From an uncultured Bdellovibrionales bacterium (GTDB lineage Bacteria > Patescibacteriota > Minisyncoccia > Moranbacterales > GWC2-37-73): a stretch of 56,708 bases of DNA. The notes beneath the pieces are model-generated. The model searched no databases. It saw only the letters and a program-made list of their open reading frames with translations, and was not told where the DNA came from. Of the stretch, positions 14,142 to 54,608 are shown in pieces; positions within the stretch are counted from its first letter, which is position 1; every line of letters starts with the position of its first letter. The translations under genes were made by a program, and so were the position numbers. The stretch spans positions 1 through 56,708 of the forward strand of contig CAZAFB010000008.1 of the NCBI GenBank assembly GCA_964484505.1, read 5' to 3'.

Positions 14142-14238
14142 GCGACTCGAATGATACGAATATGCACCCGAATGACTCGAATGAAATTTGGTGTCGATAT
14201 TCGTAACATTAGAGTGATTATTGGTAAATTAGAGTCGC
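14142..14238. repeat. Periodic quasi-palindromic intergenic element (CGAAT/ATTCG family)
   Basis: Terminal IR GCGACTC/GAGTCGC; left arm has four CGAAT units, right arm ATTCG/ATTAG/ATTGG. Confidence 0.8.
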
Positions 14239-14242
14239 TAAT

Positions 14243-15250
14243 ATGATGGTACGATTTACGACTAAAAAAATTGAATCACTTACTTTGGGCGAGCGTTTGA
14301 AAAAAATGCGCAACGATCGCCGTTTGGGGACCAATGATGTCGCCAAAATGATAAAGGTGCAAGTGAAATATCTGCAATATCTGGAAGAAGGTGAGTATGC
14401 CAAATTGCCGGCAGATGTATATGTGAAAGGTTTTTTGAGAAGCATTGCTATCTTTTTTGGGGTTTCGGAAAAAGCACTGATTAAGCAATATGAAAGAGAG
14501 AAGGGTATTCAGCTAAGTACAGGGAAGGTTTCATTAAAAGATGAATCTCCCAGGATTGTTAAATATTCTGGTTTTGCCATAACACCTAAAATATTAATCG
14601 CATCGCTTGTTGCGGTGGCAGTAATTTCCGGATTTTGTTATTTGTATTTGGAAGTGAATAGTTTTGTATCTGTGCCGCGCTTAGTTATTCTGAAGCCCAG
14701 TGACGGAACTACTGTGGATGGCAATGTCGCTCATGTAATTGGAGTTGCGGAAAAGGATGCAGTTGTTTCCTTAAATGGTCAATTTGTTTTGGTAAATGAG
14801 AATGGCGAGTTTAGCGAGGATGTGACTTTGCAAAATGGACTAAATACAATAACCGTTGTTGCTAAAAATAAGTTTGACAAGGAGTCGACGCAGTCGATAA
14901 ATATAAATGCAAACATCGCTCAGCCTGAAATGCTGCAATCAGAAAACAGCGATAATAGAAGCGAAGAAGTTGATCAGCAACCGGAAGAACAGCAAGAGCA
15001 GTTTTCAGTAAGAGTGAATGTTGCTTCTAAAGGTATAAGTGTGAGAATTGAAGATGAAAAAGGAGTTTTGTTCGATGGTGGCATAGACCCGAAATTGCCG
15101 ATATCTTTGGATGTCAGAGGCGATATAAAAATATCTTCGACAAAAGGAAGTAAAACAGATGTGAGAATAAATGGAAAAGATTTGGGAGTGCTCAGTACAA
15201 ATACAGGAAAGGTCTCAGGAGTAATGTTCAATAAGGATGGCAGAAAATAG
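14243..15250 (+). CDS. rodZ: RodZ-like protein (XRE HTH, TM, Ig-like, C-terminal beta domain)
   Basis: TLGERLKKMR...YLQYLEEGEYAKLPADVYVKGFLRS, TM ILIASLVAVAVISGFCYLY, Ig-like LQNGLNTITVVAKNK. Confidence 0.8.
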   Translation: MMVRFTTKKIESLTLGERLKKMRNDRRLGTNDVAKMIKVQVKYLQYLEEGEYAKLPADVYVKGFLRSIAIFFGVSEKALIKQYEREKGIQLSTGKVSLKDESPRIVKYSGFAITPKILIASLVAVAVISGFCYLYLEVNSFVSVPRLVILKPSDGTTVDGNVAHVIGVAEKDAVVSLNGQFVLVNENGEFSEDVTLQNGLNTITVVAKNKFDKESTQSININANIAQPEMLQSENSDNRSEEVDQQPEEQQEQFSVRVNVASKGISVRIEDEKGVLFDGGIDPKLPISLDVRGDIKISSTKGSKTDVRINGKDLGVLSTNTGKVSGVMFNKDGRK

Positions 15251-15325
15251 GGGGCATAAAAGGGAAATAATTTTCGAGATAACGGATCGCGCATAATTTT
15301 CGCGACGTAAATCTTGCATAAAAAA

Positions 15326-16333
15326 ATGGCAAAAAAAACAGAAACAGCTGCGCCGGAGGGGAAGCACAGTTTGGATCAGGTTGTTGAAGAAATCAAAGAG
15401 AAATTTGGTGACGGCATGATCATGAAATTAGGCGATGTGCGCAAAGTTGATGTGGAGGCGATACCAACAGGCTCAATATCACTTGATATAGCGTTGGGAA
15501 TCGGTGGAGTGCCACGAGGACGCATTATTGAAGTGTATGGACCTGAATCGTCCGGAAAAACAACATTGGCTTTGCATATTGTGGCTAATGCACAAAAAGC
15601 AGGAGGCACCGCAGCCTTTGTAGATGCTGAGCATGCGCTTGATCCCGAATATGCCAAGAAAATTGGCGTGAAAATAAATGAGATGCTTATTTCTCAACCT
15701 GACACGGGAGAGCAGGCGTTGGATATCGTAGAAACGCTGGTTCGTAGCGGTGCGGTTGATGTGATTGTTGTAGACTCTGTTGCAGCCCTGGTGCCGAAAG
15801 CGGAAATTGAAGGTGAGATGGGGGATCAACACGTTGGACGCCAGGCGCGTCTTATGAGTCAAGCATTGCGAAAATTGACTGCAATTGTTTCACGCTCAAA
15901 TACGATTGTTATTTTTATCAATCAGATACGCATGAAGATCGGGGTGATGTTTGGCAATCCGGAAACTACTTCCGGAGGTCAGGCCTTGAAATTTTATTCT
16001 TCGGTGCGTGTTGAAGTGAGGCGGATAGCTCAAATAAAGAAAGGGGAGGATATTGTAGGTAATCGTACTAAAGTTAAGATAGTAAAGAACAAGGTTGCGC
16101 CACCTTTCAAGACTGCGGAATTCGATATTATGTATAACGAAGGAATTTCACTCGCAGGTGATCTTGTGGATATGGGTGTTAAATATGAGGTGGTTAAGAA
16201 ATCGGGCAATTCGTATTCTTTTGAAGAAACAAAATTGGGAACCGGACGTGAAAATGCAAAAAACTTTCTAAAAGAAAATCCGAAGGTTGGTGACAAGATA
16301 GCTAAGGCAATTTCAGCGAAAGTTAAGGAGTAG
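15326..16333 (+). CDS. recA: Recombinase A
   Basis: [62 protein letters not shown]. Confidence 0.99.
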
Positions 16334-16340
16334 CATTTGC

Positions 16341-16369
16341 TTGACTTTGGGATAAAAATGCTGTATAAT
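16341..16369 (+). promoter_or_regulatory. Sigma70 promoter
   Basis: TTGACT-17-TATAAT. Confidence 0.85.
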
Positions 16370-16386
16370 GGTAATATAGCAATGGG

Positions 16387-16411
16387 AAACGGGTGATTTC
16401 ACCCGTTTTTT
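16387..16411 (+). terminator. Leader hairpin with U-tract (recA terminator or attenuator)
   Basis: AAACGGGTGA/TCACCCGTTT then TTT, about 12 nt after the predicted start site. Confidence 0.6.
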
Positions 16412-16474
16412 CGTTGGTAAACAGTAAAAATCCGCAAATGCGTCAAAAAGACGCAAGGCGCGGCAAAAACAAAA

Positions 16475-16615
16475 ATGGAAGAAGTAACTAAATGTCCTCA
16501 TTGTGAGGCGAGAAAAGCAAAAGAAGCTGAAAATGAAGAATTCAGCTTTGCCCTTCTGGTCTCCTTGATTCCTCTCCTGGTCTTCACCTTGTTTGGCCAG
16601 ATTGGTTTGTTCTAA
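16475..16615 (+). CDS. 46-aa CxxC plus C-terminal TM small protein
   Basis: MEEVTKCPHCEARKAKEAENEEFSFALLVSLIPLLVFTLFGQIGLF; has its own promoter and terminator; not in the ORF track. Confidence 0.7.
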   Translation: MEEVTKCPHCEARKAKEAENEEFSFALLVSLIPLLVFTLFGQIGLF

Positions 16616-16638
16616 AAAACTGAATATTGAATAAAAAC

Positions 16639-16663
16639 AAAAAACCACCCGAAGGTGGTTTTT
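16639..16663. terminator. Bidirectional terminator (small ORF and efp)
   Basis: AAAACCACC-CGAA-GGTGGTTTT. Confidence 0.85.
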
Positions 16664-16714
16664 ATGTTGGTTCACTCTGAATGAAGTAATAAATGTATAA
16701 TTTAAAATACTTTT

Positions 16715-17272
16715 CTAAGCTCTGGAAACGTATTCTCCTTTTTCAGTATTGACGATTATTTTGTCACCTTGGTTCACGAAAAGGGGAGCAGATACTTTTA
16801 GGTCAGTTTCGAGTACGACAACTTTGCCGCCGGTTCCTGCGGTATCACCCTTGATTCCCGGTGGCGCCTCTACTACTTCGAGAGTTACTTTTATAGGTAG
16901 TTCAATATTAACCGGAGTTTCGTTGAAGTTAAGTACGGTAACTTCTGTTCCTTCCAAAAGATAGAATTTTCCATCCCCGATAACTTCTTCATCCAAGGAA
17001 AATTGTTCATAGGAGGTATTATCCATGAAATTGAAAGTTTCTCCTTCACGATAGAGAAATTGTGCTTTTGATTTGGACATATCCGCTTCGTCGACTTTGT
17101 CCGCACCTTGGAATGTTTTATCCAACACACTTCCGTTTAATAGGTTCTTTAATTTAGTTCGTAAAACTGCGCCAGCTCGACCAGTCTTGGAATGTTCATG
17201 AGTGAGAACAATATAGGGCTGTCCTTCCCAAAGGATATTTTTTCCTGATTTGATATCGCTTATTCCTAGCAT
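16715..17272 (-). CDS. efp: Translation elongation factor P
   Basis: HSKTGRAGAVLRTKLKNL, FLYREGETFNFMD, PPGIKGDTAG, VSAPLFVNQGDKIIVNT. Confidence 0.98.
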   Translation of the reverse strand: MLGISDIKSGKNILWEGQPYIVLTHEHSKTGRAGAVLRTKLKNLLNGSVLDKTFQGADKVDEADMSKSKAQFLYREGETFNFMDNTSYEQFSLDEEVIGDGKFYLLEGTEVTVLNFNETPVNIELPIKVTLEVVEAPPGIKGDTAGTGGKVVVLETDLKVSAPLFVNQGDKIIVNTEKGEYVSRA

Positions 17273-17276
17273 GATT

Positions 17277-17363
17277 CGTTATAACGTTATAACGTTTTTA
17301 ACGTTTATAACGTTTTCTATTCGAGTTCTTTTAACGTTATAAACTTTATAAACGTTATGAACG
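17277..17363. repeat. TAACGTT-family periodic element (gene-free site)
   Basis: About eight 8-9-nt TAACGTT units; 17333-17347 is the reverse complement of the AAAGTTTATAACGTT core of the ORF6N flanks. Confidence 0.85.
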
Positions 17364-17369
17364 ATTGGA

Positions 17370-17576
17370 TTATTTAACTACAAAAGGCACTAGGGCCATG
17401 ACGCGGGCACGCTTGATTGCCTGGGAAAGCATTCTTTGGTGGTGGGTACAGGTTCCGTGGCGCTTTGGCGGATAGATTTTTCCTTGTGAGTTGGTGAAAC
17501 GGCGGATCAGATAAGCGTCTTTATAGTCTATCTTTTCCATCTTCTGCTGGCAGAAGAAACATGATTTTTTTTCCAT
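17370..17576 (-). CDS. rpsR: 30S ribosomal protein S18
   Basis: CFFC, IDYKD, GKIYPPKRHGTCTHHQRMLSQAIKRARVMALVPF. Confidence 0.97.
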   Translation of the reverse strand: MEKKSCFFCQQKMEKIDYKDAYLIRRFTNSQGKIYPPKRHGTCTHHQRMLSQAIKRARVMALVPFVVK

Positions 17577-17585
17577 GTGGAAATA

Positions 17586-17676
17586 AATCGCGAATCAATC
17601 TCTAATTTATCTCGAATTGTCTCGAATTAAGGCATTAGTGATTATTAGTGATAAGATTCGTGTCGATTAGTGATTT
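17586..17676. repeat. CGAAT/ATTAG periodic element
   Basis: Begins AATCGCGAAT and ends ATTAGTGATTT, the same termini as 18865-18956. Confidence 0.8.
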
Positions 17677-17682
17677 ATGTCA

Positions 17683-18162
17683 TTAAAATGGTACATCCTC
17701 GATTCTTACTTCATCCTGTTCTTCATCAAGGTTGATGGTTGGGATTTCTGGCTCAGCTGGAGCAGTTGTTTTGTTCGGGGTACTTGCTTGAGGTGCAGCT
17801 GTTGCCATTGCTGGACGCGGAGCCCCAGCCCCTCCTGGTTTACTGCCGAACTGAAAACTTTCAGCAACGACTTCCGTAATGCGTTTTTCAACACCATCTT
17901 TGCCCGTGTATGATCTGTTTTCTAAACGTCCTTCAAAGTATGCTTCTTGACCTTTAATCAAATATTGTCCGGCGATTTCAGCGCTGCGACCCCAGAGGAT
18001 GATGTTATGAAAATCAGTTTTTTCTTGCTTTTGTCCGCTTTTATCAGTCCAGAAACGGTTGGTTGCCAGACCTATAGTAGCAACTGTTTGACCTGTCTGA
18101 GTGGTGCGAAGTTCGACATCGCGCGTCAGGCGCCCAACGAGGATCACTTTGTTCACGTTCAT
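17683..18162 (-). CDS. ssb: Single-stranded DNA-binding protein
   Basis: NKVILVGRLTRDVELRTT, EGRLENRSY, acidic tail ending EDVPF. Confidence 0.98.
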   Translation of the reverse strand: MNVNKVILVGRLTRDVELRTTQTGQTVATIGLATNRFWTDKSGQKQEKTDFHNIILWGRSAEIAGQYLIKGQEAYFEGRLENRSYTGKDGVEKRITEVVAESFQFGSKPGGAGAPRPAMATAAPQASTPNKTTAPAEPEIPTINLDEEQDEVRIEDVPF

Positions 18163-18174
18163 GAGGATTTTTGT

Positions 18175-18257
18175 CCCGAATCTTCGCGAATTATTTCTCG
18201 AATAATCACGAATGATTAGGGAATATTAGCGAATTTATTAGTGATGATTCGCGATTT
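18175..18257. repeat. CGAAT/ATTAG periodic element
   Basis: Four CGAAT units, then ATTAG/ATTCG units. Confidence 0.8.
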
Positions 18258-18263
18258 ATATCC

Positions 18264-18857
18264 TTAAATATTTAAGATCTCTTCGAGCTGTTTGTCGATG
18301 TCTTTCTCTTGTTCTTTTTCCTTCTTTTCAACTTCCTTCTGTGCTACTGCTGGTTCTTGAACAACTTCCTCTTTTACTTCTTTGATAACCACTTCTTCTT
18401 TTGCTGGCGCAGCTTCTTTCTTTTCGAAACGAGGTTTCTGAGGACCTCTTTTGTCGCGGCGATCGTCTCTGCGAGGCTCCTGTTTTCTTTGTTGTTGTTG
18501 GAGTTGCTGAGCTTCAATCAAGGATTCAATGGAAGGCAATTCGTCAGCTTTTGTGAAGATAAAACGAAGAATATCGTTGTTAAGGGTAAGTTTGCGGGAA
18601 AGAGTGGAAATCGGATCAGTTTGATCAGCTCCTTCTTCTTGCCCCCAGATGTCACGCTCGGGAAGTTCGAAACGGCGGGCTACATATGTTCCGCGCTTTT
18701 GGTGCTTGATTTCGTAGGCAAGCTTTCTTTTGGAAACATACTCCGGGTCAGCCAAAGTTGCGCCTGCTTCAGTGAGCATGGCTTCCACGTCGCTTTTGAT
18801 TTTGTCGAGATTTGCTTCTTGGCGCTCTCCGACGAGGTAGAACAGTTCGTACTGCAT
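18264..18857 (-). CDS. rpsF: 30S ribosomal protein S6 with long charged C-terminal tail
   Basis: MQYELFYLV...KRKLAYEIKHQKRGTY...LNNDILRFIF; position in rpsF-ssb-rpsR operon. Confidence 0.95.
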   Translation of the reverse strand: MQYELFYLVGERQEANLDKIKSDVEAMLTEAGATLADPEYVSKRKLAYEIKHQKRGTYVARRFELPERDIWGQEEGADQTDPISTLSRKLTLNNDILRFIFTKADELPSIESLIEAQQLQQQQRKQEPRRDDRRDKRGPQKPRFEKKEAAPAKEEVVIKEVKEEVVQEPAVAQKEVEKKEKEQEKDIDKQLEEILNI

Positions 18858-18864
18858 TTGGTAT

Positions 18865-18956
18865 AATCGCGAATTTGCACGAATTGTTCACGAATGATCG
18901 CTAATAGATCCTTGATTCGTGAATATTAGTGCTATATTCGTGAATATTAGTGATTT
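18865..18956. repeat. CGAAT/ATTAG periodic element in the rpsF leader
   Basis: CACGAAT units and a duplicated ATTCGTGAATATTAGTG. Confidence 0.8.
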
Positions 18957-18958
18957 AT

Positions 18959-19072
18959 AAAAAATACCACCAAACAAGAAGGCCCATCTTTGGTGGAGAT
19001 TTCCGACCTATCCTTTATTTAAGCCATAAATCGGCTATAAAAGGCGGATCGAACAGGGTCTTTCTTGATTGT
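18959..19072 (-). ncRNA. Candidate S6:S18 ribosomal leader with terminator
   Basis: Nested stems GACC/GGTC, CCTTTTAT/ATAAAGG and AGCC/GGCT with CCG in an internal loop, then CCACCAAA/TTTGGTGG hairpin and U-tract. Confidence 0.4.
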
Positions 19073-19078
19073 TTAATT

Positions 19079-19106
19079 AGTATAGCAGGTTTTTGTAATT
19101 TGGCAA
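19079..19106 (-). promoter_or_regulatory. Promoter of rpsF-ssb-rpsR
   Basis: TTGCCA-16-TATACT with TG extension, on the minus strand. Confidence 0.55.
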
Positions 19107-19170
19107 GGGTCGTAGGATGGACATTTTGGGGTTAAGATTGTAATATGTTTTGATGAGAAAGATTTGTCTA

Positions 19171-19238
19171 TGTCATGCTGAACTTGTTTCAGCATCTCGC
19201 TGGGCATCTCGAGATCCCGAAACAAGTTCGGGATGACA
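19171..19238. repeat. REP-like double palindrome (TGTCAT...ATGACA)
   Basis: TGTCATGCTGAACTTGTTTCAGCATCTC-N12-GAGATCCCGAAACAAGTTCGGGATGACA. Confidence 0.85.
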
Positions 19239-19249
19239 AGTAAGAGTTT

Positions 19250-21207
<1,958 letters not shown>

Positions 21208-21208
<1 letters not shown>

Positions 21209-21251
21209 AAAGGTGTCAAAATCTCGCATATGCCTAAAATTGACACCTTTT
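21208..21251 (+). terminator. Terminator after uvrB
   Basis: AAAAGGTGTCAA/TTGACACCTTTT inverted repeat. Confidence 0.65.
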
Positions 21252-21342
21252 GTGTTAATTTTTGTGGGGTGTATAATTAAAGTAGTTCATACCACATCGT
21301 CAATATTCAGATATTTATGCCAAAATAAGAAAGGGGAAGCAC

Positions 21343-21759: not shown

Positions 21760-21788
21760 AAAATATATCTGAATTCTGAAGAATTAAA

Positions 21789-21823
21789 CAAAATCCTCGA
21801 CGATACGCCGAGGATTTGTTTTT
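21789..21823 (+). terminator. Intrinsic terminator
   Basis: AAATCCTCG/CGAGGATTT then T-tract. Confidence 0.7.
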
Positions 21824-21958
21824 GTTGATTTATTGGCTGTTTTGGTATATGATGCTCGGAAGCCGTGAGAAAGACAAACTATGGCTGCAGGGTATAATAT
21901 TTTAGAGATATTACATATAAAGTACCTCAAAAGGGGAAGTCTTTTGCGTTTAAATATA

Positions 21959-22021
21959 TCACGAATCAGTACTAATTTTTCGCGAATATTCGCGAAAAGA
22001 TTTGAGAATGATTAGTGATTT
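21959..22021. repeat. CGAAT/ATTAG periodic element before uvrA
   Basis: TATCACGAAT...TTTTCGCGAATATTCGCGAAAA...ATTAGTGATT. Confidence 0.7.
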
Positions 22022-22029
22022 ATATAATC

Positions 22030-25005: not shown

Positions 25006-25008
25006 CGT
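24977..25008 (+). repeat. AACGTTCGTAACG duplication forming the uvrA C-terminus
   Basis: AACGTTCGTAACG occurs twice and supplies NVRNAKRS-stop. Confidence 0.6.
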
Positions 25009-27597: not shown

Positions 27598-27636
27598 CGC
27601 GGATTCACGCGGACTATACGCAGAAATACGCTGAAA
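27598..27636 (+). repeat. ACGCGGA/ACGCAGA periodic arm
   Basis: CGCGGATTCACGCGGACTATACGCAGAAATACGCTGAAA. Confidence 0.6.
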
Positions 27637-27644
27637 ATGAATAC

Positions 27645-30549: not shown

Positions 30550-30550
30550 A

Positions 30551-30674
30551 GAACCACTTATTATCACATGATTACAATGATTTCACTGATTGTGTTTCTT
30601 GATTTATTATCATGTGTAATCAGCCCGCCATCCGCCAACTGGCGGAGGCGGAAATCAGTGCAAATCAGTGGTTC
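30551..30674. mobile_element. MITE-like element, copy 1 (GAACCAC...GTGGTTC)
   Basis: Terminal IR GAACCACT(G/T)ATT / AATCAGTGGTTC; nested CCGCCATCCGCCAACTGGCGGAGGCGG at 30625-30651. Confidence 0.75.
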
Positions 30675-31132
30675 TATAGCAGAAGCAATAAGATTGCGAT
30701 TGAACAGAAGATAATATCATTAACGGCATTGCGCAGGGTCCAATCATAGCGTGAGTCACCTTTCGGATAAGGATGGATCCATGCATGAAAGTCAAAAAGT
30801 TTTTTAAGAAAGTTGAAATGCAGTTTCCAGTAAAGCACGGTGAAAAGATCGGGAAGCATGGAGAAGAACATTCCGATCAGGATATTTCTGGCAATTTCCA
30901 GAGGGGGCATTGCAATGGCTATATAAAATATAACAATGCTGCAGCCTAGCAAGAGATCAATCGCAACTTTCCACCAAGTGCTGCGAACCGTGGAAGCTCG
31001 TCCCAGATATTCTCCGTGACGGAAAGTGTCAAGCGTGTAATGCAAAGCTATTGCAAGGGGAATCAGCAATAAAGGGCTGTGCACATATTTGCCAAGGGCA
31101 GCACCTGTGAGGGCGTGGGTAGTTAAGATCAT
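30674..31132 (-). CDS. Membrane protein, putative metal-dependent hydrolase (YdjM-like His/Asp pattern)
   Basis: MILTTHALTG...LHYTLDTFRH...MLPDL...FHAWIH, several TM helices; start moved to ATG 31132. Confidence 0.7.
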   Translation of the reverse strand: MILTTHALTGAALGKYVHSPLLLIPLAIALHYTLDTFRHGEYLGRASTVRSTWWKVAIDLLLGCSIVIFYIAIAMPPLEIARNILIGMFFSMLPDLFTVLYWKLHFNFLKKLFDFHAWIHPYPKGDSRYDWTLRNAVNDIIFCSIAILLLLL

Positions 31133-31144
31133 AAAAATAAATAT

Positions 31145-31261
31145 GAACCACTGATTATCACATGAAAGCACGTGATTTCACTGATAAGAAATTCAATCAT
31201 GTGTAATCAGTCCGCCATCCGCCAACTGGCGGAGGCGGAAATCAGAGTTAATCAGTGGTTC
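31145..31261. mobile_element. MITE-like element, copy 2
   Basis: GAACCACTGATTATCACATGA...AATCAGTGGTTC with the same nested palindrome at 31212-31238. Confidence 0.75.
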
Positions 31262-33662: not shown

Positions 33663-33669
33663 CAAATCA

Positions 33670-33778
33670 GAACCACTGATTATCACATGAGCACACATGA
33701 TTTCACTGAAATAAGTATAAAAAATAAATGCACCACAATCACGTGTAATCAGGATAATCACGTGGTAATCAGTGGTTC
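33670..33778. mobile_element. MITE-like element, copy 3 (no nested palindrome)
   Basis: GAACCACTGATTATCACATGA...AATCAGTGGTTC. Confidence 0.75.
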
Positions 33779-34953: not shown

Positions 34954-34978
34954 AATAAGATATATATTAAAAATGGAA

Positions 34979-35287
34979 AAGCGATGATGGAGATATCACT
35001 CCATCGCCCCGTTGAAATGTTCACTTTGTGAATTTCACGGGGCAAGCTGTGCGAAGAAAAGGCAAGCCGCCTTCGTCAAGACTACGGCGAGCCGCAGTAG
35101 AACGCATCGGGCAAGCCCGTAATAGCTGTAATTAAGTCGTGAAGCTCACAACTTGAATCTTGAAGTGAAAGTTTCAAGCTTTATGTTTCAAGTTTCACGA
35201 GAATTAAGGTGGTACCACGCCCAGATCACAGTCGCTCCCGAGCGATGTGACACGCGTCCTTATGCATTTTTTGCGTAGGGATTTTTT
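34979..35287 (+). ncRNA. T-box riboswitch (Ile, AUC specifier) with ultrashort Stem I and intrinsic terminator
   Basis: GATGGAG-ATATCA-CTCCATC; Stem II with AAGAA/AGTAGAA S-turn; IIA/B CGGGCAAGCCCG; antiterminator TAAGG-TGGTACC-ACGC / GCGT-CCTTA; terminator 35257-35287. Confidence 0.92.
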
Positions 35288-35295
35288 GTTTATCT

Positions 35296-35387
35296 CTACG
35301 AATTACGAATAGGTACGAAAGTACGAATGTGCAAAGATATTTATTATTTGTATATTTGTAAATTTGTAATTGATTTGTAATTTGTAG
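35296..35387. repeat. TACGAAT/ATTTGTA periodic element between the T-box and ileS
   Basis: Four TACGAA units, then five ATTTGTA-like units. Confidence 0.8.
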
Positions 35388-39777: not shown

Positions 39778-39793
39778 GATGCTTAGGTGAAAA

Positions 39794-39845
39794 ATAGGAC
39801 AAGGGTAATAGGACTGATGGGACGGATAGGACGCATATGACTAAT
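39794..39845 (+). repeat. AGGAC/GGGAC periodic arm
   Basis: ATAGGAC...ATAGGACTGATGGGACGGATAGGACGCATATGACTAAT. Confidence 0.6.
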
Positions 39846-46600: not shown

Positions 46601-49600
46601 GGACTTTTTAATATTAACGGAACGATTTCCGCTAATGGCACCAACGGGCTGACAAATGATAGATCCGGTGGCGGTTCCGGGGGAGGAATTTGGATTAACG
46701 CGAATACCATAGGGGGAGGGGGTTCAATTTCAGCCAATGGGGGAAACGCTTATAATACGTATGGAGCTGGAGGCGGAGGTGGTGGTCGTATTGCGGTTGA
46801 ATATCTAAGCAGTACTTTTAGCGGCACTTATTCATCTTCCGGAGGCACGGGATATAATGCCGGAAATGCCGGTACTATTCGCACAGGCTCTCTTTCTGCG
46901 GAAGTATTATCCTCCCCCTATGATTCCGGAAGTGGACAAAATGTTATTGCTAAGCTTCAATGGACGGAAACACTGCCTGCGGGTACGGATGCGAAATTTC
47001 AAATCAGAACAGCCCCTGATAATGGCGGAGCACCAGGAACCTGGACTTCTTGGATGGGTCCCAATGGTACTTCCGGAACATATTTTACCGATCCATCAGG
47101 AGGGGAGGATATTCCTGCCGCTTTGGAAGATGGCGCAAACGATCAATGGATGCAGTACAGGGTTTTGTTGAGCAGTCCCGACCTTTCAGTCAATCCGGTT
47201 GTTGGCGATGTATCATTGTTTTATGTGGTAAATCAGCCGCCTAGTTTTGATGCCACTTTTGGTACCGATGGAATCAATCTTTCACAAGTATCAAGCTCTG
47301 TCGATCCGCAATGGGGCAAGATGAAAATAGAATATGCGGTGCGCGATGTCGATACTACTTCCGGAACGGTAACTCAAAATTACGCAACCCCTTCTTTCGA
47401 ATATTCTTTCGATGGTTCCAATTGGACAGCGGTCAATTCGGCGTATGTGACATATTCCGCGCCGGCGCAAGGCGATGTCGCTGACGTTAACGGCGATGGC
47501 AAGATGGATAACAAAATGTTGGAAGGAAGCTATCTGACATATGCAGCGTATTGGAACGCTAAGTCTCAAATTCCGGAAACATATTCCGAATCCATTCGCG
47601 TAAGGATTACCCTTACTGACAATGAAATAGCCAACAGTACTGTGCAAGCTATTGGAAATATAATTAGCGTAGACACGAAAAACCCGACATTGGCCAGTGT
47701 GCCGATGCATGTGCATGCCAATTCTGTGCCTGCTTCAGTTTCATCTGATGTAACAGATGATAATTCCTTGCAGATGAGAATCGGCTTGGCAACGGATATT
47801 TCCGATGCTTCTTGGGAAAGCTATGCCGCCAGCAAACAGCTTGCGCTGGCAACCAATCCCGATATTGTCTATGCTCAATATCGCGATGCTTTTGGTAATT
47901 CCAGTGTTATTTTATCAGCTCAAACGCCTGAGCAGCCGGCGACAGTAATGATTCAGGATACTTCGAACATGCACAATGACCTTAATGAATATAGGCTTTT
48001 TGTGGCATGGAAAACGATCGCTACGCCAGAAGTGGGATTTGGTTCATATTATGTGTACCGTTCGGAAAATCAGACAGACTGGACTCATGTAGGAACCGTG
48101 AATGAAAGGCTGACCAACTATTATGGTGACAATTCCGTGCAGGGAAATGTGAATTATTATTATCGTGTAGCATCCGTAGATAGTAGCGGTGATATATCAT
48201 ATGTTTCAGCAATCGTTAACGGAGTGGCTAACGGTAATGTCGATGCGGGAGAGGGAGGCGGAGGAACGGGCGAACAACCCCCGGTAATTTCCAATGTAAC
48301 CGTGGACAATATTACGCCTACTAGCGCGCAGATAAACTGGACAACTGACGTTATAGCAACTTCCACAGTGGGATTTTCCACTCAACCTTCACATTTCGAA
48401 AATGAAGTAGGATCAGGATCCATGGTTACATCGCATAGCGTTACTTTGAGCAGTCTTACTCCCAACACTCAATATTATTTCCAAACAAAGTCGGCAAATG
48501 CTTCGAATGCTTTAGCTGTCGACACCAATGGAGGAAATGGCTATACATTTTCTACTTCAGCTGGCGACAGTACTGCTCCAATAATTTCCAATATCACAGT
48601 TGCGAATACGACTGCTTCGACCGCAACAATAACCTGGGATACCAATGAAGCTGCTACTTCCTTTGTGGAATATTCAAAAACGAATGGATTTTCCACGGGA
48701 GCGCAATTTGGAGATGTTGCGATGACCACAAGCCATAGTGTAACTGTGCCGTCTTTGGAACAAGGAACAACTTATTATTTCAAGGTCCGCTCCAAAGATG
48801 CGGCGAATAATGAAGGAATATCGGCACAAAGCAGTTTTGATACGTTAGTCAGCGGGGATGTGACATCTCCGCAAATAAGCGGTTTGTCTTCCACACCATC
48901 TTTCAATAGCGCTACCGTAACTTGGACTACCGACGAGGATGCGACATCCTATGTTGAATATGGCTCGAACACATCCTATGGTCGTATTTATGGGGACAAT
49001 AATCCGGTAAAATCACATACGGTTCAGCTTCCCTATGATCTTTCTTCCGAACAGTCATATCATTTCAGAGTCAGATCATTTGACGGTTCGTATAACGAAG
49101 CAATTTCTTCCGATAATACTTTTACGACAACTGTAAATCCGGCAGATTCCACAGCGCCGTTGATTGCTAATATCAACATCGGCACACCAGACAGGGACAG
49201 CGTGACTGTAACTTGGAATACGGATGAATCATCAACGTCATATGTCGGTTATTCCAGCGATGGGGGTGATACTTTTTCCGAGCAAGGCTACTCCACTTTA
49301 ACAACATTCCATAGCGTAACTCTGGCCGGTCTTACTCCCGGTACGACATATCTGTTGAAGATTTCCTCGGCAGATGCTTCCGGCAATAAAGCTACTGATG
49401 ACAATGCTGGTTCTTATTATCAAAGAGCAACAGCTCCCGGTCCAGTACCGCCAGTATTCAGCTCCGTATCTTCATCGAATCTGGACGAACATCGCACGAC
49501 TGTTACCTGGAGCACGGATCTCTCTTCAACTTCGCTTGTTGAATATGGTTTGGATACTAACTATGGTTCCGTAGCTGGCAAGCTCGATGATAAGACAAGC

Positions 49601-51838
49601 CATTCGGTTACTCTGGAAGGATTATTGCCAAGCACTACTTATCATTTTCGTGTGCGTTCAACGGATGAGGTAGAGGGTGTCTCCGGTGATTATACTTTCA
49701 CTACCACAGCCGCACCGGACACTCAGGGTCCGGCAATAAGCGCGATATCATCAACGAACATCAGCAAGGACGGCGCAAGGATAACATGGACAACTGATGA
49801 AAATTCCAATTCACTTGTTTCCTATGGTCAATCATCGGCATACTCTATGGTTGCTGGTGACCGCAGCACCATGGTTACTTCGCATGCTGTCGATCTGGAT
49901 CGCTTGTCTCCGAGCACAACATATCATTACCAAATTACATCCACGGATTCAGTCGGAAACACGGCAAATTCTTCAGATCAAACACTCACTACAATTGCCG
50001 ATACTTCCGATCCGGTAATTTCCGATCTGGAAGTGCGTAGCGTGTCAGAAACCGGAGCAGTCCTTTCCTGGAAGACTGATAAGCGAGCTTCCACAAAAAT
50101 AAATTATGGCGTCGATCATGATTTGGCAAGCAATTATGATGCTCAAATAATTTCAGATGTGCATATTATTTCGCTTACCGGGCTTGCTGGTGGTCAGAAA
50201 TATTATTTCAAGGCAGTTTCGGTTGATGAATATGGTAATAGTGTGGAATCAACAGAACAAACATTCACAACTCTGACTGATCCCGAGTTAAGTCATGATC
50301 CGCTGGAGAGCATAAGCGATATTCCAGATTCACCTGCTGTGCTTACTGATACGAAAGCTGTGATTGACTTTTCTACCGATCAGCGTGCGCAATGCTTTAT
50401 TGAATATGGTACTCAAGCAGGACAATATACGGAAGTTCCAATAGGGGAATCAACATATGATTCCAAACACTCCCTACATTTGGCTGGCCTTATATATCAA
50501 ACCAAATATTATTATCGAGTAACTTGTTCGGATAATTTGGATACGATCATCATGTCTGATGAACTCAGCTTTACGACTCTGGAAAAGCAAGTAGGGGAAA
50601 GCGAGACTGGAGAAGAAGAGATTGCTGATCGCATAGCGCCGTCAATCAGTAATGTTTCGGTAAAAACAGTGGCAAGTGAAAGCACGGTAATTTCTTGGGA
50701 TACGGATGAAAACGCCAACAGCATGATACGTTTTGGCACCAGTTCAACTTATGGCAAGATGACTGGTGATGATAGCGTCAATAAAGATTCAGCCAACTAT
50801 GTTCAAAAACACGAAGTGACCGTGGACAGGTTGGTTCCCGGAACAAAATATTATTTCGAAGCAATGTCCTTGGATACAAATGGGAATATCGGAAAATCTT
50901 CTCAGGGAACGTTTACCACAGAAGGAACATCGACCATATCATCGATAGTTTCAGAATCCAAAGAATTGGGCAAGGCGACAGTAATGTGGCTAACACAAGT
51001 TCCTGCCGATACTTACCTTGAATACGGCGTTTCCACTAAATATGGTTCTGAAATAAAACAAAGTTCGCTTACCAAGGAACATCAAGTGGAGCTTTCTGGT
51101 CTTAAAGGCGGTTCGATATATCATTTTCGAATTAAAGGAACTGATGCTGAGGGAAATATTTATACTTCGGCTGATTCCACTTTTGCGCCAAAATCTCCGC
51201 CAAAGGTTCGTGATTTGCAAGCAGTGCATGTTTCTGAACATTCAGCAACAATCACTTTTACAGCAGATGTTCCAGTGACAGCAACCGTAAACTATCAGGA
51301 CACACGCAAGGAGAAAGAGGCGCAAAGCAAAGGTAATCCGAATTTGGGAACCAAGCAGGAGATAATCTTGAATGATTTGGAATCAGGGCTTACTTACTCG
51401 TATGCCGTAACAGTGCGCGACGAGAATGGTCTGGAGACAATATCTGAAGCGAAAACTTTTGTTACCGGCAAGGACACTACGGCGCCGCTTATCGATCAGG
51501 TAAAAACCGAATCTGCTCTGACTCAAAACGACAAAGTGCAATCAATTATCAGCTGGAAAACTGATGAGCTGGCGACAGGAGCTCTTGTGTATCGGGAAGG
51601 TAAAAATGGCGAGGAAAAAGAAATTAAAGTTTCGGACGTTTTGTCACAACAGCATGTGGCGGTGGTTACTTCATTCAATCAGGGTTCAGTTTATTATTTT
51701 AGGGTAAAAGCTGTCGATGCTTCCGATAATGAGGCGGTTTCTTCAGATTATGCATTATTAACACCTAAAACAAAGGAGAATATAGTGCAGGTAATAATTT
51801 CTAATTTCTATGATATATTCAGATGGACAAGGAGATGA
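43616..51838 (+). CDS. Giant secreted surface protein/adhesin (2740 aa): Gly-rich beta repeats plus about 12-13 FN3-like domains
   Basis: Signal peptide ending ANA-A; GGGHGGKG / GSGGAIW / GGGGRIA repeats; DVNGDGKMD Ca-binding-like loop; repeated P.IS.V...A.I.W.TD...S.V.YG...H.V.L..L.P.T.Y.F. Confidence 0.93.
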   Translation: MKPRANHFKRHFFLGASFFAMVFLFFSHNANAATITWDGSSSTDWATAANWVGDAVPTSTDDVVINGSYTNAPILNLSAGAVTVNSLSVGSSATSVVTVSNGDIDTKKLIVTGDVTIGASGTLTHTANSSAETHRLSLQVGGNMTIVSGGSISINSKGYTGTSGNGRGPGAGGGGDINQRGSGGGHGGKGASTTTHAGGTTYDSITQPAMIGSSGGTCSRAAYGGAGGGAAKIVVGGTLTLEGALTAVGGNGITDKCSGGGSGGAIWVVAGNLTGAGSINANGGTSYNNDLTSASGGGGGRIAIEYTTSSFSGAITAFGKTGYAYGGAGTIYLKQGTNNGDLIVDNNSVAGADTLQLAGTNFTFDNVTITKSAKYVIPDTSSLAASVSLSANSVDATITVNSGGSMTLPASQNSLAYFSIANSGTVNVSQSNFSISNGTITNNGTITGISNLTLSSVTFYQNGTLTGITDLIVGASSTFEFQNLTPSTPFNLNSLTIQSSGVLTHKGNSSTEAYTLNLNISGNLDVQSGGSINLNSKGYTGTSGNGRGPGAGGGGDINQRGSGGGHGGKGASTTTHAGGTTYDSITQPAMIGSSGGTCSRAAYGGAGGGAAKIVVGGTLTLEGALTAVGGNGITDKCSGGGSGGAIWVVAGNLTGAGSINANGGTSYNNDLTSASGGGGGRIAIEYTTSSFSGAITAFGKTGYAYGGAGTIYLKQGTNNGDLIVDNNSVAGADTLQLAGTNFTFDNVTITKSAKYVIPDTSSLAASVSLSANSVDATITVNSGGSMTLPASQNSLAYFSIANSGTVNVSQSNFSISNGTITNNGTITGISNLTLSSVTFYQNGTLTGITDLIVGASSTFEFQNLNASTPFNLSNLTVLSGGTITHKANSSTETYTLNLNISGDFDLQSGGAISLNGRGYVGKSGTGYGPGAGAGGDLNAYGAGGGYGGKGGNGRAGLVGGSPYGSIVQPVNIGSSGGAATATSGSGGGAVKIIVGGLFNINGTISANGTNGLTNDRSGGGSGGGIWINANTIGGGGSISANGGNAYNTYGAGGGGGGRIAVEYLSSTFSGTYSSSGGTGYNAGNAGTIRTGSLSAEVLSSPYDSGSGQNVIAKLQWTETLPAGTDAKFQIRTAPDNGGAPGTWTSWMGPNGTSGTYFTDPSGGEDIPAALEDGANDQWMQYRVLLSSPDLSVNPVVGDVSLFYVVNQPPSFDATFGTDGINLSQVSSSVDPQWGKMKIEYAVRDVDTTSGTVTQNYATPSFEYSFDGSNWTAVNSAYVTYSAPAQGDVADVNGDGKMDNKMLEGSYLTYAAYWNAKSQIPETYSESIRVRITLTDNEIANSTVQAIGNIISVDTKNPTLASVPMHVHANSVPASVSSDVTDDNSLQMRIGLATDISDASWESYAASKQLALATNPDIVYAQYRDAFGNSSVILSAQTPEQPATVMIQDTSNMHNDLNEYRLFVAWKTIATPEVGFGSYYVYRSENQTDWTHVGTVNERLTNYYGDNSVQGNVNYYYRVASVDSSGDISYVSAIVNGVANGNVDAGEGGGGTGEQPPVISNVTVDNITPTSAQINWTTDVIATSTVGFSTQPSHFENEVGSGSMVTSHSVTLSSLTPNTQYYFQTKSANASNALAVDTNGGNGYTFSTSAGDSTAPIISNITVANTTASTATITWDTNEAATSFVEYSKTNGFSTGAQFGDVAMTTSHSVTVPSLEQGTTYYFKVRSKDAANNEGISAQSSFDTLVSGDVTSPQISGLSSTPSFNSATVTWTTDEDATSYVEYGSNTSYGRIYGDNNPVKSHTVQLPYDLSSEQSYHFRVRSFDGSYNEAISSDNTFTTTVNPADSTAPLIANINIGTPDRDSVTVTWNTDESSTSYVGYSSDGGDTFSEQGYSTLTTFHSVTLAGLTPGTTYLLKISSADASGNKATDDNAGSYYQRATAPGPVPPVFSSVSSSNLDEHRTTVTWSTDLSSTSLVEYGLDTNYGSVAGKLDDKTSHSVTLEGLLPSTTYHFRVRSTDEVEGVSGDYTFTTTAAPDTQGPAISAISSTNISKDGARITWTTDENSNSLVSYGQSSAYSMVAGDRSTMVTSHAVDLDRLSPSTTYHYQITSTDSVGNTANSSDQTLTTIADTSDPVISDLEVRSVSETGAVLSWKTDKRASTKINYGVDHDLASNYDAQIISDVHIISLTGLAGGQKYYFKAVSVDEYGNSVESTEQTFTTLTDPELSHDPLESISDIPDSPAVLTDTKAVIDFSTDQRAQCFIEYGTQAGQYTEVPIGESTYDSKHSLHLAGLIYQTKYYYRVTCSDNLDTIIMSDELSFTTLEKQVGESETGEEEIADRIAPSISNVSVKTVASESTVISWDTDENANSMIRFGTSSTYGKMTGDDSVNKDSANYVQKHEVTVDRLVPGTKYYFEAMSLDTNGNIGKSSQGTFTTEGTSTISSIVSESKELGKATVMWLTQVPADTYLEYGVSTKYGSEIKQSSLTKEHQVELSGLKGGSIYHFRIKGTDAEGNIYTSADSTFAPKSPPKVRDLQAVHVSEHSATITFTADVPVTATVNYQDTRKEKEAQSKGNPNLGTKQEIILNDLESGLTYSYAVTVRDENGLETISEAKTFVTGKDTTAPLIDQVKTESALTQNDKVQSIISWKTDELATGALVYREGKNGEEKEIKVSDVLSQQHVAVVTSFNQGSVYYFRVKAVDASDNEAVSSDYALLTPKTKENIVQVIISNFYDIFRWTRR
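44078..46208 (+). repeat. Tandem duplication, period 1140 bp, with a 991-bp identical block
   Basis: 44078-45068 matches 45218-46208 on line-by-line reading; antisense ORFs 44281-44559 and 45421-45699 are identical. Confidence 0.95.
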
Positions 51839-51886
51839 TTGTTCATGATTGATGTGTTATAATAAAAAAGAAGTTGAAAAAAACAA

Positions 51887-53197: not shown

Positions 53198-53198
53198 T

Positions 53199-54413
53199 AT
53201 GAAGTTTATAGATTTATTCAAACTTTCAACCAGAATGTTTAAGGCGCGCACCTCGCGTACGCTTTTGACTATTCTTGGTATGAGTATCGGTATCGGAGCA
53301 ATTCTCTTTTTGGTTTCCCTGGGATACGGTTTGCAAAAAACTTTGCTAGAAAGAATTACGACTTCCGATTCGTTACTTACGCTTGATGTCACTGAAGCCA
53401 AATCCGGAGTCATAATGCTTGATGGTGAAAGAATAGGTAAATTAAAGCAGATGAGCGGCGTTACGGAAGTAAGTCCCGCATTTCAATTAACTGCACAAGG
53501 CCACTTGGAAGATTTATCAGCCGATCTTGTTTCTTTTGTATCTACACCTTCTTATTTAAAGCTTGGTGGATTTAAGGCAACGCAAGGAGTACTTCTTTCA
53601 GACGATGTTCCAAACGGAATAGTCATCAGTAGTGCAGTGGCTCAAGTTTTTGGCAAAAGTGCGGAAGAAATGATTGGCAAAGAAATGACTTTTTCCTTTT
53701 TCATACCAAAGGAGAATAAATCTTCCGAAGGGGATGCTGATTCACAAATAGAATATGATCGTACCGAAGGCAAAAATACCTATAAGATAATAGGTATGGT
53801 TGGAAATGAAGAAAATGTGGTTTATATAAATTCAGAGTCTCTTAAAGATTTGAATATTCAAAGATATTCGCAAGTTAAGGTCAAATGCGCTTCCAATCAA
53901 GAAATGTCGTTTATTCGCGACGCTATAATCAATGATGGGTTGTTGGTGTCTTCACTTTCAGATACTGTTGATCAAGCAAACAAAATTTTTAGCATAGTGC
54001 AGTTGATCCTGATGCTTTTTGGAGTAATTGCACTGGTTGTTTCAGCAATTGGTATGTTCAATACGATGACCATAGCACTTTTGGAGCGTACAGAGGAAAT
54101 AGGTATCATGAAATCAATTGGGGCATCAGATATGAGTATATCGATTATGTTTTTTATGGAATCAGCAATCATGGGCTTTTTGGGTGGACTTGCCGGTGTT
54201 ATGATAGGTTTTCTAGGGGGGATATCTTTCAACTGGTTGATTAATTTTATTGCCATTCGTTTCGGAGGGGAGAAGGTGACTCTTTTTTACAGTCCGCTTT
54301 GGTTTGTGCTTGCCATTATCGCCTTTTCTGCAGTGGTTGGTCTTTTTACTGGCCTTGTGCCGGCAAGGAGAGCGAGCAAGATTGATCCATTGGACGCACT
54401 TAGATACAAATAA
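53199..54413 (+). CDS. MacB/FtsX-family ABC permease
   Basis: RTLLTILGMSIGIGAIL, large extracellular domain, IGMFNTMTIALLERTEEIGIMKSIGA, PARRASKIDPLDALRY. Confidence 0.95.
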   Translation: MKFIDLFKLSTRMFKARTSRTLLTILGMSIGIGAILFLVSLGYGLQKTLLERITTSDSLLTLDVTEAKSGVIMLDGERIGKLKQMSGVTEVSPAFQLTAQGHLEDLSADLVSFVSTPSYLKLGGFKATQGVLLSDDVPNGIVISSAVAQVFGKSAEEMIGKEMTFSFFIPKENKSSEGDADSQIEYDRTEGKNTYKIIGMVGNEENVVYINSESLKDLNIQRYSQVKVKCASNQEMSFIRDAIINDGLLVSSLSDTVDQANKIFSIVQLILMLFGVIALVVSAIGMFNTMTIALLERTEEIGIMKSIGASDMSISIMFFMESAIMGFLGGLAGVMIGFLGGISFNWLINFIAIRFGGEKVTLFYSPLWFVLAIIAFSAVVGLFTGLVPARRASKIDPLDALRYK

Positions 54414-54491
54414 TGAATTATGAAGTAAAAATTAGGAATTAAGATAAAAGGAATTGCATCTTTCATAATTCATAAATCATAATTCATAATT
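54412..54491. repeat. ATGAATT/AATTCAT heptamer quasi-palindromic element
   Basis: Left arm ATGAATTATGAA...AGGAATT, right arm TTCATAATTCATAAATCATAATTCATAATT. Confidence 0.75.
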
Positions 54492-54552
54492 TCCGGGCTA
54501 ATGTTGCCCCTTTTTTTATTTACGGTTATAGTATAGGAGAATCTGTGGGCTA

Positions 54553-54608
54553 ATTTTGTTCGTAGATTCGTCCGCCAGCTGGCGGAGTAATTCGTAGTTT
54601 CGTATCGG
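54553..54608. repeat. ATTCGTA arm with nested TCCGCCAGCTGGCGGA palindrome
   Basis: Palindrome at 54571-54586 is the same family as the insert in MITE copies 1 and 2. Confidence 0.7.

Follow-up and report, generated by a model that had tools for sequence, protein, structure and literature searches.

The intergenic spacers of a 56,708-nt contig from an uncultured bacterium placed in the Moranbacterales (GenBank assembly GCA_964484505.1, contig CAZAFB010000008.1; this whole stretch is hereafter called the window), and those of related genomes, hold a class of dispersed palindromic repeats that is real and spans the lineage. About 14 spacers of the window carry such an element, in which a unit of 6-14 nt, repeated 2-5 times in tandem, is followed by a loop and then by complementary units, giving hairpin-forming elements of 70-125 bp; single arms are found as well. 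Bacteria of the candidate phyla radiation (CPR, or Patescibacteria) have tiny streamlined genomes in which the organisation of gene expression is, to our knowledge, almost uncharted, and the class seems to be undescribed in them, no account of it having been found in the literature searched. Conserved palindromic arrays lying against stop and start codons fill about one in four spacers of 60-200 nt in this lineage, pointing to selfish elements that survive streamlining, to a layer of mRNA processing or stability in operons, or to protein-binding sites. In practical terms, the elements cause cross-matches between loci in metagenome assemblies and mislead start-codon calling, and they could serve as lineage markers.

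The explanation that we prefer, while holding it to be slightly short of probable, is that these are repeats resembling enterobacterial repetitive intergenic consensus (ERIC) sequences or REPINs, the hairpin-forming doublets of repetitive extragenic palindromic (REP) sequences. They would be copied between spacers by a DNA-level mechanism and retained as transcribed hairpins that hold a stop and a start codon close to each other, probably acting in the processing or the stability of mRNA. Copying between spacers would use a sequence-specific partner, and the arms would lengthen through duplication of their units. Once inserted, an element would be transcribed within the operon mRNA as an imperfect hairpin of 35-45 bp, which by folding away would leave the upstream stop and the next start only about 5-20 single-stranded nucleotides apart, so that the insertion would be tolerated. 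Selection would then keep the element in place, most plausibly because its hairpin serves to process or stabilise the mRNA.

Palindromic arrays exceed chance expectation across the lineage

We collected 80 loci of relatives by a protein search with SSB, each of at most 20 kb and centred on ssb; they are referred to by L-numbers (L001, L007 and so on), and metagenome runs by X-numbers (X4, X10). The best SSB relatives were metagenome-assembled genomes (MAGs) of Candidatus Moranbacteria/Moraniibacteriota (Parcubacteria, CPR), the closest being 87% identical and the others 59-73%. Open reading frames (ORFs) were called in the window and the 80 loci (1.34 Mb, with 919 spacers of at least 40 nt), and 570 spacers of 60-200 nt were compared with 570 length-matched coding segments. 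Strong folding, taken as a z-score of the minimum free energy (zMFE) below -2, was found in 42% of these spacers and in 5% of the coding controls, and short-range recurrence of 5-mers (z>2) in 25% and 5%, respectively. When both were required jointly (the stricter rule), 13.7% of the spacers were positive versus 0.4% of the controls, and such elements were present in 39 of the 80 relatives. A looser rule, combining zMFE<-2 with an excess of either tandem or inverted 5-mers, marked 158/570 spacers (28%) versus 3/570 coding controls (0.5%).

Arrays in which a 6-mer occurs three or more times within 50 nt numbered 434 in the real spacers versus 21 in dinucleotide-shuffled ones, a difference of about 20-fold, and arrays of TTCGTA/TACGAA, ACTTTA and AAGCTA recurred in 15, 11 and 9 genomes, respectively, alongside several CGAAT variants. 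Since shuffling does not give comparable arrays and the families are related genome-wide and across species, the observation made in an earlier, sequence-only reading of the window, that periodic quasi-palindromes occupy many of its spacers, stands. All the coordinates named there hold the sequence described, including the CGAAT palindromes (14142-14242, 17577-17682, 18163-18263, 18858-18960 and 21955-22028), the TAACGTT palindrome placed at 17277 (17273-17369) and the ATGAATT/AATTCAT palindrome placed at 54412 (54414-54493). Unit density is 12-70 times higher in spacers than in coding DNA, and DNA uptake sequences of the DUS/USS kind were rejected because this speaks against them.

Within the window, the 7-mer CNC[G/T]AAT shows no overall enrichment (71 matches versus 65 +/- 8.5 expected), and 37 of the 71 matches fall in the five CGAAT-family spacers, which together make up less than 1% of the window. 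Three operon spacers each hold four copies in '+' orientation and then four in '-' orientation, 10-12 nt apart. As sense-strand RNA, 10 of 11 palindromes of the window fold with z-scores of -3.1 to -8.7, only 0-2 of 200 shuffles folding as well; the outlier is 17577-17682 (z -1.7), and the single arms have z-scores of about 0.

Elements are optional insertions that are conserved where retained

The lengths of co-directional spacers have a second mode at 100-110 nt, and the ssb-rpsR spacer (n=65) is bimodal, with 29 cases of at most 40 nt, none of 41-51 nt and 35 of 64-170 nt. Read directly, the empty orthologous spacers are A-rich and 12-38 nt long, and the filled ones hold an element that runs from stop to start. 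The elements are therefore discrete, optional insertions, and the existence of empty orthologous spacers implies that the operon functions without them.

For pairs of species we compared the identity of orthologous spacers with that of fourfold-degenerate sites in the operon genes. Retained elements were 0.83-0.97 identical where fourfold sites were 0.29-0.67 identical, with values of 0.91 versus 0.37 for L007/L077, 0.83-0.87 versus 0.29 for L067/L038, and 0.97 versus 0.67 for L020/L027. The remaining spacers lay at the noise floor of alignment (0.55-0.65), meaning that their element had been replaced by one of another family. Even the window and its closest relative, L001, have at most one of the three operon spacers in common, and recognisable orthologues of the rpsF-ssb and rpsF-leader elements were found in L022 and L032. 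At the level of strains, nine assemblies of the window strain from different samples, all with the same S6 protein, were identical over all four operon elements. Hypermutability can thus be dismissed, and the copies that are retained are either constrained or being homogenised. This identity also excludes a variable-number tandem repeat or hypervariable satellite, and CRISPR arrays are excluded by structure, the units being 6-14 nt long, 0-5 nt apart and followed by their complements instead of identical 25-40 nt repeats with unique spacers; that the elements are neither CRISPR nor microsatellites had been proposed from the outset. In L030 and L038 both arms have changed in a coordinated manner, from TTCGTA/TACGAA to TCCGTA/TACGGA, which fits either selection for pairing or conversion from arm to arm, and L007 and L032 differ in copy number by one unit.

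Such one-unit differences, together with unit periods that range from 7 to 14 nt, a mismatch asymmetry that tracks GC skew and the dispensability of elements at many orthologous sites, are what would be expected of a neutral by-product of replication, in which slippage makes the units and hairpin template switching copies the other arm, with neither function nor mobility. We regard this explanation as improbable, because the conservation of retained orthologues far exceeds that of fourfold sites, the same families with the same mismatches occur across many species and loci, length is constant among strains, and the outer ends obey an orientation rule relative to genes (described below).

The genes around the elements speak to a further proposal of the sequence-only reading, recombination of gene cassettes at sites like the attC of integrons. 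The elements are indeed imperfect palindromes of attC-like length with conserved mismatches, and two genes of the window, the ORF6N gene and a gene for a 165-aa membrane protein, are bracketed by repeats. The flanking genes are nevertheless syntenic core genes (rpsF, ssb, rpsR, efp, uvrA, ileS) across the 80 genomes, no integrase was found among the window proteins scanned, and ORF6N stays beside lexA, the pair holding its position in four genomes. We consider cassette recombination close to refuted.

The region of ORF6N and lexA showed variation of its own. In metagenome run X4 the spacer between the two genes (10541-10807) is swapped for 198 other bases in a strain that is otherwise near-identical from 10808 onwards and much more divergent over 9500-10540; a look-up with the LexA-like protein did not retrieve this variant spacer. 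A contig joint that skips 10710-10779 was seen in all four runs. Elsewhere, one X10 contig joins 18859 to 18987 and thereby skips exactly the rpsF-leader element, leaving 37 nt on its shorter side; this joint may be an element-free variant or a cross-match. Upstream of ORF6N-lexA, at 9860-9920 and in L013, L052 and L047, there is a conserved DnaA-box-like sequence, TTATCCACA, followed by the promoter-like TTGCAG-17-TGnTAGAAT.

Elements lie within predicted transcripts and against coding regions

A predicted TG-extended promoter on the minus strand (19106..19079) and a predicted terminator (16663..16640) flank the rpsF-ssb-rpsR-efp operon, and since they enclose it, all four of its elements would lie within one predicted transcript. 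Every gap of this run is occupied, as had been claimed, the four elements including that of the rpsF leader. Overall, elements occupy 5' leaders, intercistronic gaps and 3' untranslated regions (UTRs) before terminators. Their outer ends lie 0-13 nt from a stop or start codon, full copies beginning 2-12 nt past the stop and finishing 2-12 nt short of the start. In the window and the 80 loci the stricter rule marked 16% of co-directional, 10% of convergent and 3% of divergent spacers. Within 1.3 kb of ssb 40/187 spacers were positive versus 38/383 elsewhere, so that the elements are enriched in this region and not restricted to it.

The same relation to coding edges was seen for 66 one-arm modules, whose ATCGG end lies at most 15 nt from a start (23) or a stop (15), that is in 38 of the 57 that could be scored; for the inner end the figure is 7/62. 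Read in the sense of the mRNA, a UUCG-type arm stands ahead of starts and the complementary CGAA-type arm behind stops, and where a stop and a start are neighbours their two arms together make the palindrome. The start-proximal arm is somewhat more regular (40 versus 26, p=0.01). A pairing of complementary 5' and 3' modules around each gene was considered and rejected, no association being found (p=0.43). No T-run follows the elements, in agreement with the lack of U-tracts noted earlier, and they do adjoin start codons. Intrinsic terminators lie elsewhere (for instance at 16640-16663), and this function was rejected for the elements because, besides missing the T-run, they are internal to the predicted rpsF-efp unit.

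With their ends 2-13 nt before starts, a hairpin base that joins stop and start codons, a more regular start-proximal arm and a Shine-Dalgarno (SD) motif before only 3% of the genes behind them, the elements could be taken for a device of translation initiation or coupling that replaces the SD, the start-proximal arm recruiting the ribosome or the hairpin handing terminating ribosomes on. This role, too, appears improbable to us. In these genomes an SD-like motif stands before only about 10-15% of the whole set of genes, so that the absence of such motifs is a property of the genome and not of the elements; about 45% of the ssb-rpsR spacers are free of elements; the same modules adjoin stops before terminators (15/38) and occur in 3' UTRs (54414, 27598); and both orientations exist. 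The earlier remark that SD motifs are missing thus holds at the elements and fails as a feature of them, and SD-independent initiation is not specific to the elements, given the rarity of SD motifs genome-wide and the many orthologous spacers without an element.

Families of elements are shared between loci and species

The best defined family has the consensus CCGATtCGAAaCTACGAA-N5-TTCGAATCTACGAAC-loop-TTCGTAGATTCGyA-N5-TTCGTAGwTTCGyATCGG, with an ATG 2-13 nt further on (the TTCGTAG family). Its mean column identity is 76% in 11 copies from eight species, and its 14-mer recurs every 20-21 nt. A covariance model and a hidden Markov model recovered more copies, and a scan of metagenomes with the 18-nt end of the family matched more than 120 contigs. 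The consensus folds into a two-segment hairpin of 25 pairs, with compensatory change at two pairs only. Among 41 non-redundant copies, 13 of 15 consensus pairs are represented by their commonest form in 36 copies or more, and the remaining two in 33 and 29; with stems so conserved in sequence, covariation is almost absent. A conserved T.C mismatch (G.A on the opposite strand) is inherited in copies of both orientations and lends the family an intrinsic polarity. The CGAAT, ATTAGTG and ATTTGTA units of the window look like diverged relatives of this ATTCG-type family, in line with a weak match of model R1 at 14134-14251.

Similar copies usually number two to four per genome within 20 kb, with three near-identical copies each in L067, L038, L020 and L008; the CGAAT family has five copies in 57 kb of the window genome. 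Contigs from other loci of the same metagenomes match the window elements by single arms only. The shared mismatches and the similarity of whole elements within and between genomes indicate that elements are copied or inherited as units. One mechanism acting on several unit types had been put forward; a single recognisable class is indeed seen, and purely local generation is not supported, mismatches and whole-element similarity being inherited. Two TTCGTAG copies of L007 (10818-11048 and 12803-13056) contain a conserved, structured loop insert of about 130 nt, suggesting that elements are able to carry cargo. On viral contigs the 18-mer had 0 matches and a 15-mer had 70 single matches, by a rough estimate not above the chance level.

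The sequence conservation of the units also suits a different explanation, which we think possible and clearly less likely than copied hairpins. Here each arm would be an operator-like array bound by oligomerising proteins that recognise its sequence in DNA or in single-stranded RNA, and a palindrome would be two arrays that face two gene ends, with proteins of the ORF6N or helix-turn-helix (HTH) type as candidate binders. In keeping with it, unit cores are conserved and linkers variable, the 4+4 7-mers are spaced by about one helical turn (10-12 nt), the TTCGTAG 14-mer has its period of 20-21 nt, it is the sequence and not pairing alone that is conserved, solitary arms exist and are oriented to the gene boundary, and arms bracket the ORF6N gene in the window and in L013. 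Many families would, however, demand a large set of binders from a genome of about 1 Mb, and the periods of the other families (7-9 nt) are not helically phased. Compensatory changes in two arms are unexpected for independent sites, and the arrays sit within transcription units, not at promoters, with divergent spacers holding disproportionately few of them. The suggested co-occurrence with ORF6N was borne out only in part: arms stand on both sides of the gene in the window and L013, on one side in L052 and on none in L047, and most elements have no ORF6N neighbour. The LexA operator, a candidate in view of the many SOS-type genes of the window, was rejected as a general explanation because other families fill the same spacers in other genomes.

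A broader form of this thought, which we consider unlikely, is that the arrays are cis sites of an undescribed gene-boundary system in CPR bacteria, with proteins or a ribonucleoprotein seated on phased units at coding edges. If so, the paired arrays of neighbouring genes would form the palindromes; the system would control the processing, coupling or insulation of cistrons in organisms that for the most part have no SD motifs; and families would turn over by co-evolution with their binders.

Strand preference and the case against transcribed hairpins

Several results weigh against the preferred reading of copied elements retained as transcribed hairpins. Of 69 elements that lie in co-directional spacers, 21 fold better as the sense strand and 40 as the antisense strand, and the locally G-rich strand is the better folder in 41 versus 20; since folding follows the G-rich strand, the pattern of wobbles and mismatches tracks replication skew and not selection on the mRNA. 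Some families (L020, L036) retain A.C mismatches on the sense strand, one-arm modules are unable to form hairpins, covariation is nearly absent because the sequence itself is conserved, and the 4+4 units of the window family at 10-12 nt spacing have the look of a protein-binding array. RNA-labelled contigs do span intercistronic elements; they are sparse, carry the doubtful label 'GENOMIC RNA-Seq' and hold no information on ends. On the side of DNA copying, no transposase of any kind, REP-associated tyrosine transposases (RAYTs) included, was found by Pfam among the 30 window proteins scanned, and no target-site duplication was visible between filled and empty orthologous spacers.

In the window the + strand, which is the G-rich one, folds equally well or better at most elements, whatever the direction of the genes, with the element at 35290 as a strong exception. 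An apparent polarity of TTCGTAG copies with gene direction (12/13 in the genome set) was set aside for phylogenetic non-independence, most of the copies being orthologues or paralogues of one operon; copies in the metagenomes occur in both orientations relative to genes and to skew.

Comparison with known repeat systems

The behaviour of the elements is closest to that of ERIC, REPIN and Correia-type repeats, the last belonging with the miniature inverted-repeat transposable elements (MITEs), since they are transcribed extragenic repeats that are optional, multicopy, found in either orientation and conserved beyond neutral expectation. They are set apart by arms built of short tandem units, by families that replace one another and by outer ends pressed on coding regions.

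ERIC sequences, also called intergenic repeat units (IRUs), were reportedly described by Hulton in 1991 and by Wilson and Sharp in 2006. They form one sequence family in Enterobacteria and Vibrio, and their arms are not tandem arrays of short units; we know of no transposase for them. Like the elements described here, they are imperfect palindromes (about 100-130 bp for ERIC) in transcribed intergenic DNA, occur in both orientations, are found at some orthologous sites and missing from others, and are conserved between species above their neutral neighbours. Unlike ERIC, our elements comprise several unrelated families per lineage, include one-arm modules and end against stop and start codons. 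Mycobacterial interspersed repetitive units (MIRUs) are said (Supply, 1997) to be tandem 40-100 bp units in the intercistronic gaps of operons. Their ends likewise touch the neighbouring stop and start codons. MIRUs are, however, direct repeats with small coupled ORFs and a copy number that varies among strains, whereas the elements here are palindromic, non-coding and invariant among strains.

Correia or NEMIS (neisserial miniature insertion sequence) elements are palindromic insertions of about 100-150 bp that are co-transcribed with their neighbouring genes and are known to be cut by RNase III or to alter mRNA stability. A MITE is bounded by defined terminal inverted repeats and by a target-site duplication, which is TA in Correia elements. 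Our elements share with both the palindromic insertion, a placement predicted to be co-transcribed and dispersed near-identical copies. In contrast to MITEs, neither defined terminal inverted repeats nor a duplication were seen here, the whole element being one inverted repeat, and the arms of short units and rapid replacement of families also differ. Correia/NEMIS of Neisseria and other bacterial MITEs are the subject of PMC2229807 and PMC3184786.

REP sequences, their bacterial interspersed mosaic elements (BIMEs), REPINs and RAYTs are treated in PMC3116915, PMC3337134, PMC3333891 and PMC3733652. As with REPINs, the elements are extragenic and consist of two inverted halves that make one long hairpin of similar size; as with REP and REPIN, there are several families per genome, long persistence and conserved stem mismatches. 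The TTCGTAG family even has GTAG/CTAC motifs, yet its GTAG sits inside the paired arm. REP halves are small self-complementary, GC-rich palindromes of 20-40 bp with a terminal GTAG or CGTC tag, whereas the arms here are direct-repeat arrays that are not self-complementary, and the CGAAT, TAACGTT and AATCAG families have no such tag. REPINs go with a cognate RAYT (Y1 transposase) gene that the repeats flank and with tens to hundreds of copies across a genome; the 30 window proteins scanned against Pfam include no Y1 transposase.

Organelles offer a last parallel. Palindromic repeats of Volvox organelles (PMC2670323) and the (A)n-TATA-(T)n 'palindromic microsatellites' of Fusarium mitochondria (PMC7218506) resemble our elements in that AT-rich compact genomes have spacers filled by optional, supposedly mobile palindromes. 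The Fusarium repeats were rejected as a counterpart because they are mononucleotide runs that vary in length among strains, versus sequence-specific units of 6-14 nt conserved across species.

Elements of the window

The elements are listed in Table 1. The earlier list proved right in its sites and incomplete, further elements lying at 9921-9956, 10563-10593, 10655-10710, 30550-30673, 31172-31254 and 33663-33771.

Table 1. Elements and related repeats of the window, with sense-strand folding z-scores or other remarks
Position	Strand	Feature	z-score or remark
9921..9956		TAACGTT-type unit array, one arm, in the 5' leader of the ORF6N gene	direct reading
10563..10593		Partner TAACG-type array right after the ORF6N stop codon	brackets the gene together with 9921-9956
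10655..10710		TTTGTACA/ATTCGT unit array with a TCCGCC remnant, upstream of the LexA-like gene	direct reading
14142..14242		CGAAT/ATTAG palindrome, whole spacer from ftsK to the HTH_25 gene, up to the ATG	z -4.15
17273..17369		TAACGTT palindrome, whole rpsR-efp spacer	z -4.17
17577..17682		CGAAT-family palindrome (4+4 units, 10-12 nt spacing), whole ssb-rpsR spacer	sense z -1.7
18163..18263		CGAAT-family palindrome (4+4 units), whole rpsF-ssb spacer	z -4.29
18858..18960		CGAAT-family palindrome (4+4 units), rpsF 5' leader, touching the ATG	z -5.17
21955..22028		CGAAT-family palindrome, uvrA leader, between TATAAT box (~21893) and GGAGG/start region	z -3.79
27598..27640	+	Single arm, ACGC[G/A]GA-type direct repeats, 3' UTR, between perfect hairpin and intrinsic terminator	z -0.86
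30550..30673		AATCAG/ATCACATG-family palindrome with nested GC hairpin CCGCCATCCGCCAACTGGCGGAGGCGG, convergent spacer	z -6.63
31172..31254		Second copy of the AATCAG element with GC hairpin	z -5.35
33663..33771		AATCAG/ATCACATG-family palindrome, whole spacer from argS to glycosyltransferase gene	z -4.19
35125..35215	+	TTGAA/TTCAAG periodic hairpin in the middle of the probable T-box leader	RF00230 match below gathering score
35290..35390	+	TACGAAT/ATTTGTA palindrome, between T-box terminator and ileS start codon	z -8.70
39790..39835	+	ATAGGAC direct repeats upstream of a TGgTATAAT box (extended -10)	z 0.06
54414..54493		ATGAATT/AATTCAT palindrome, 3' UTR, between stop codon and intrinsic terminator	z -3.10
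54553..54608	+	Start-proximal arm of the widespread TTCGTAG...TTCGTATCGG family with inserted GC hairpin TCCGCCAGCTGGCGGA	ends 4 nt before the folD ATG

At several sites relatives help to place the elements. In L013 the position equivalent to 9921-9956 holds an arm from another family, and L032 carries a TTTGTA array upstream of its lexA where the window has 10655-10710. Model R1 matches 14134-14251 weakly, and at 17577-17682 the + strand folds better than the sense strand (-23.1 versus -15.6 kcal/mol). The two AATCAG elements at 30550-30673 and 31172-31254 are direct copies that bracket the gene of the 165-aa hydrophobic protein (30674-31171), which has no Pfam match and may be similar to LexA-regulated membrane hydrolases (DUF457/YdjM).

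The region upstream of ileS (34975-35290) is a probable T-box leader. It matches RF00230 over 34975-35264 with 24.9 bits (E=0.0014), below the gathering score of 93, and direct reading shows the motif GGTGGTACCACG, a terminator at about 35254-35290 and ileS downstream. The TTGAA/TTCAAG hairpin that had been reported at 35139 is present, and since it lies inside this leader it probably belongs to the T-box riboswitch and is not a free element. The adjacent palindrome, reported as CGAAT at 35296, exists with a different filing: its unit (TACGAAT/ATTTGTA) is of the related ATTCG type and pairs through G-U on the sense strand only (sense -37.3 versus antisense -11.7 kcal/mol).

Likewise, the single arms described at 27598, 39794 and 54553 are all present, with the qualification that the one at 39794 consists of direct repeats upstream of a promoter and is not an arm in a UTR. 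No complementary arm was found anywhere in the window for either 27598-27640, which is unstructured, or 39790-39835.

Small GC-rich hairpins (TCCGCC...GGCGGA in the window, CCTGCCTGCAGGCAGGCAGG in relatives) are nested within the AT-rich arms at 30626-30652, 31209-31239, 54570-54586 and 10690-10700, and at 10550-10572 of L030. In TTCGTAG-family copies of L030, L101 and other species the hairpin occupies an equal internal-loop position. These hairpins look like a second, smaller sort of inserted palindrome, reminiscent of yeast mitochondrial GC clusters. Separately, a conserved hairpin, ACCACCAAACAAGAAGGCCCATCTTTGGTGG, which could be a leader motif of the S6 operon in its own right, lies immediately upstream of the rpsF-leader element, at 18966-19000 of the window and at the equivalent place in L032.

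Gene content and further features of the window

Pfam identified ORF6N (9957), a LexA-like S24 peptidase (10772), FtsK, an HTH_25 protein (14243) and RecA, followed on the minus strand by EF-P, S18, SSB and S6. Further genes encode UvrB, UvrA, UvrC and a second UvrA, and then an RsmI-like methylase, ArgRS, a GT4 glycosyltransferase, IleRS, RecO, TGT and FolD. At the gathering score Rfam gave zero matches in the whole window, and a tRNA scan was likewise empty.

Genes of the SOS response and repair are unusually abundant (lexA-like, recA, ssb, two uvrA, uvrB, uvrC, recO, ftsK). Upstream of uvrB, at 19170-19235, two inverted copies of GAACTTGTTTC/GAAACAAGTTC resemble a LexA (Cheo) box of the Gram-positive type. 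A single ORF of 2740 aa, with an ORF of 130 aa ahead of it, occupies 43616-51838. GC skew of the + strand is positive throughout the window, and the rpsF-ssb-rpsR-efp operon (16313-18857) is on the - strand, apparently the lagging one, which is an unusual placement for ribosomal protein genes.

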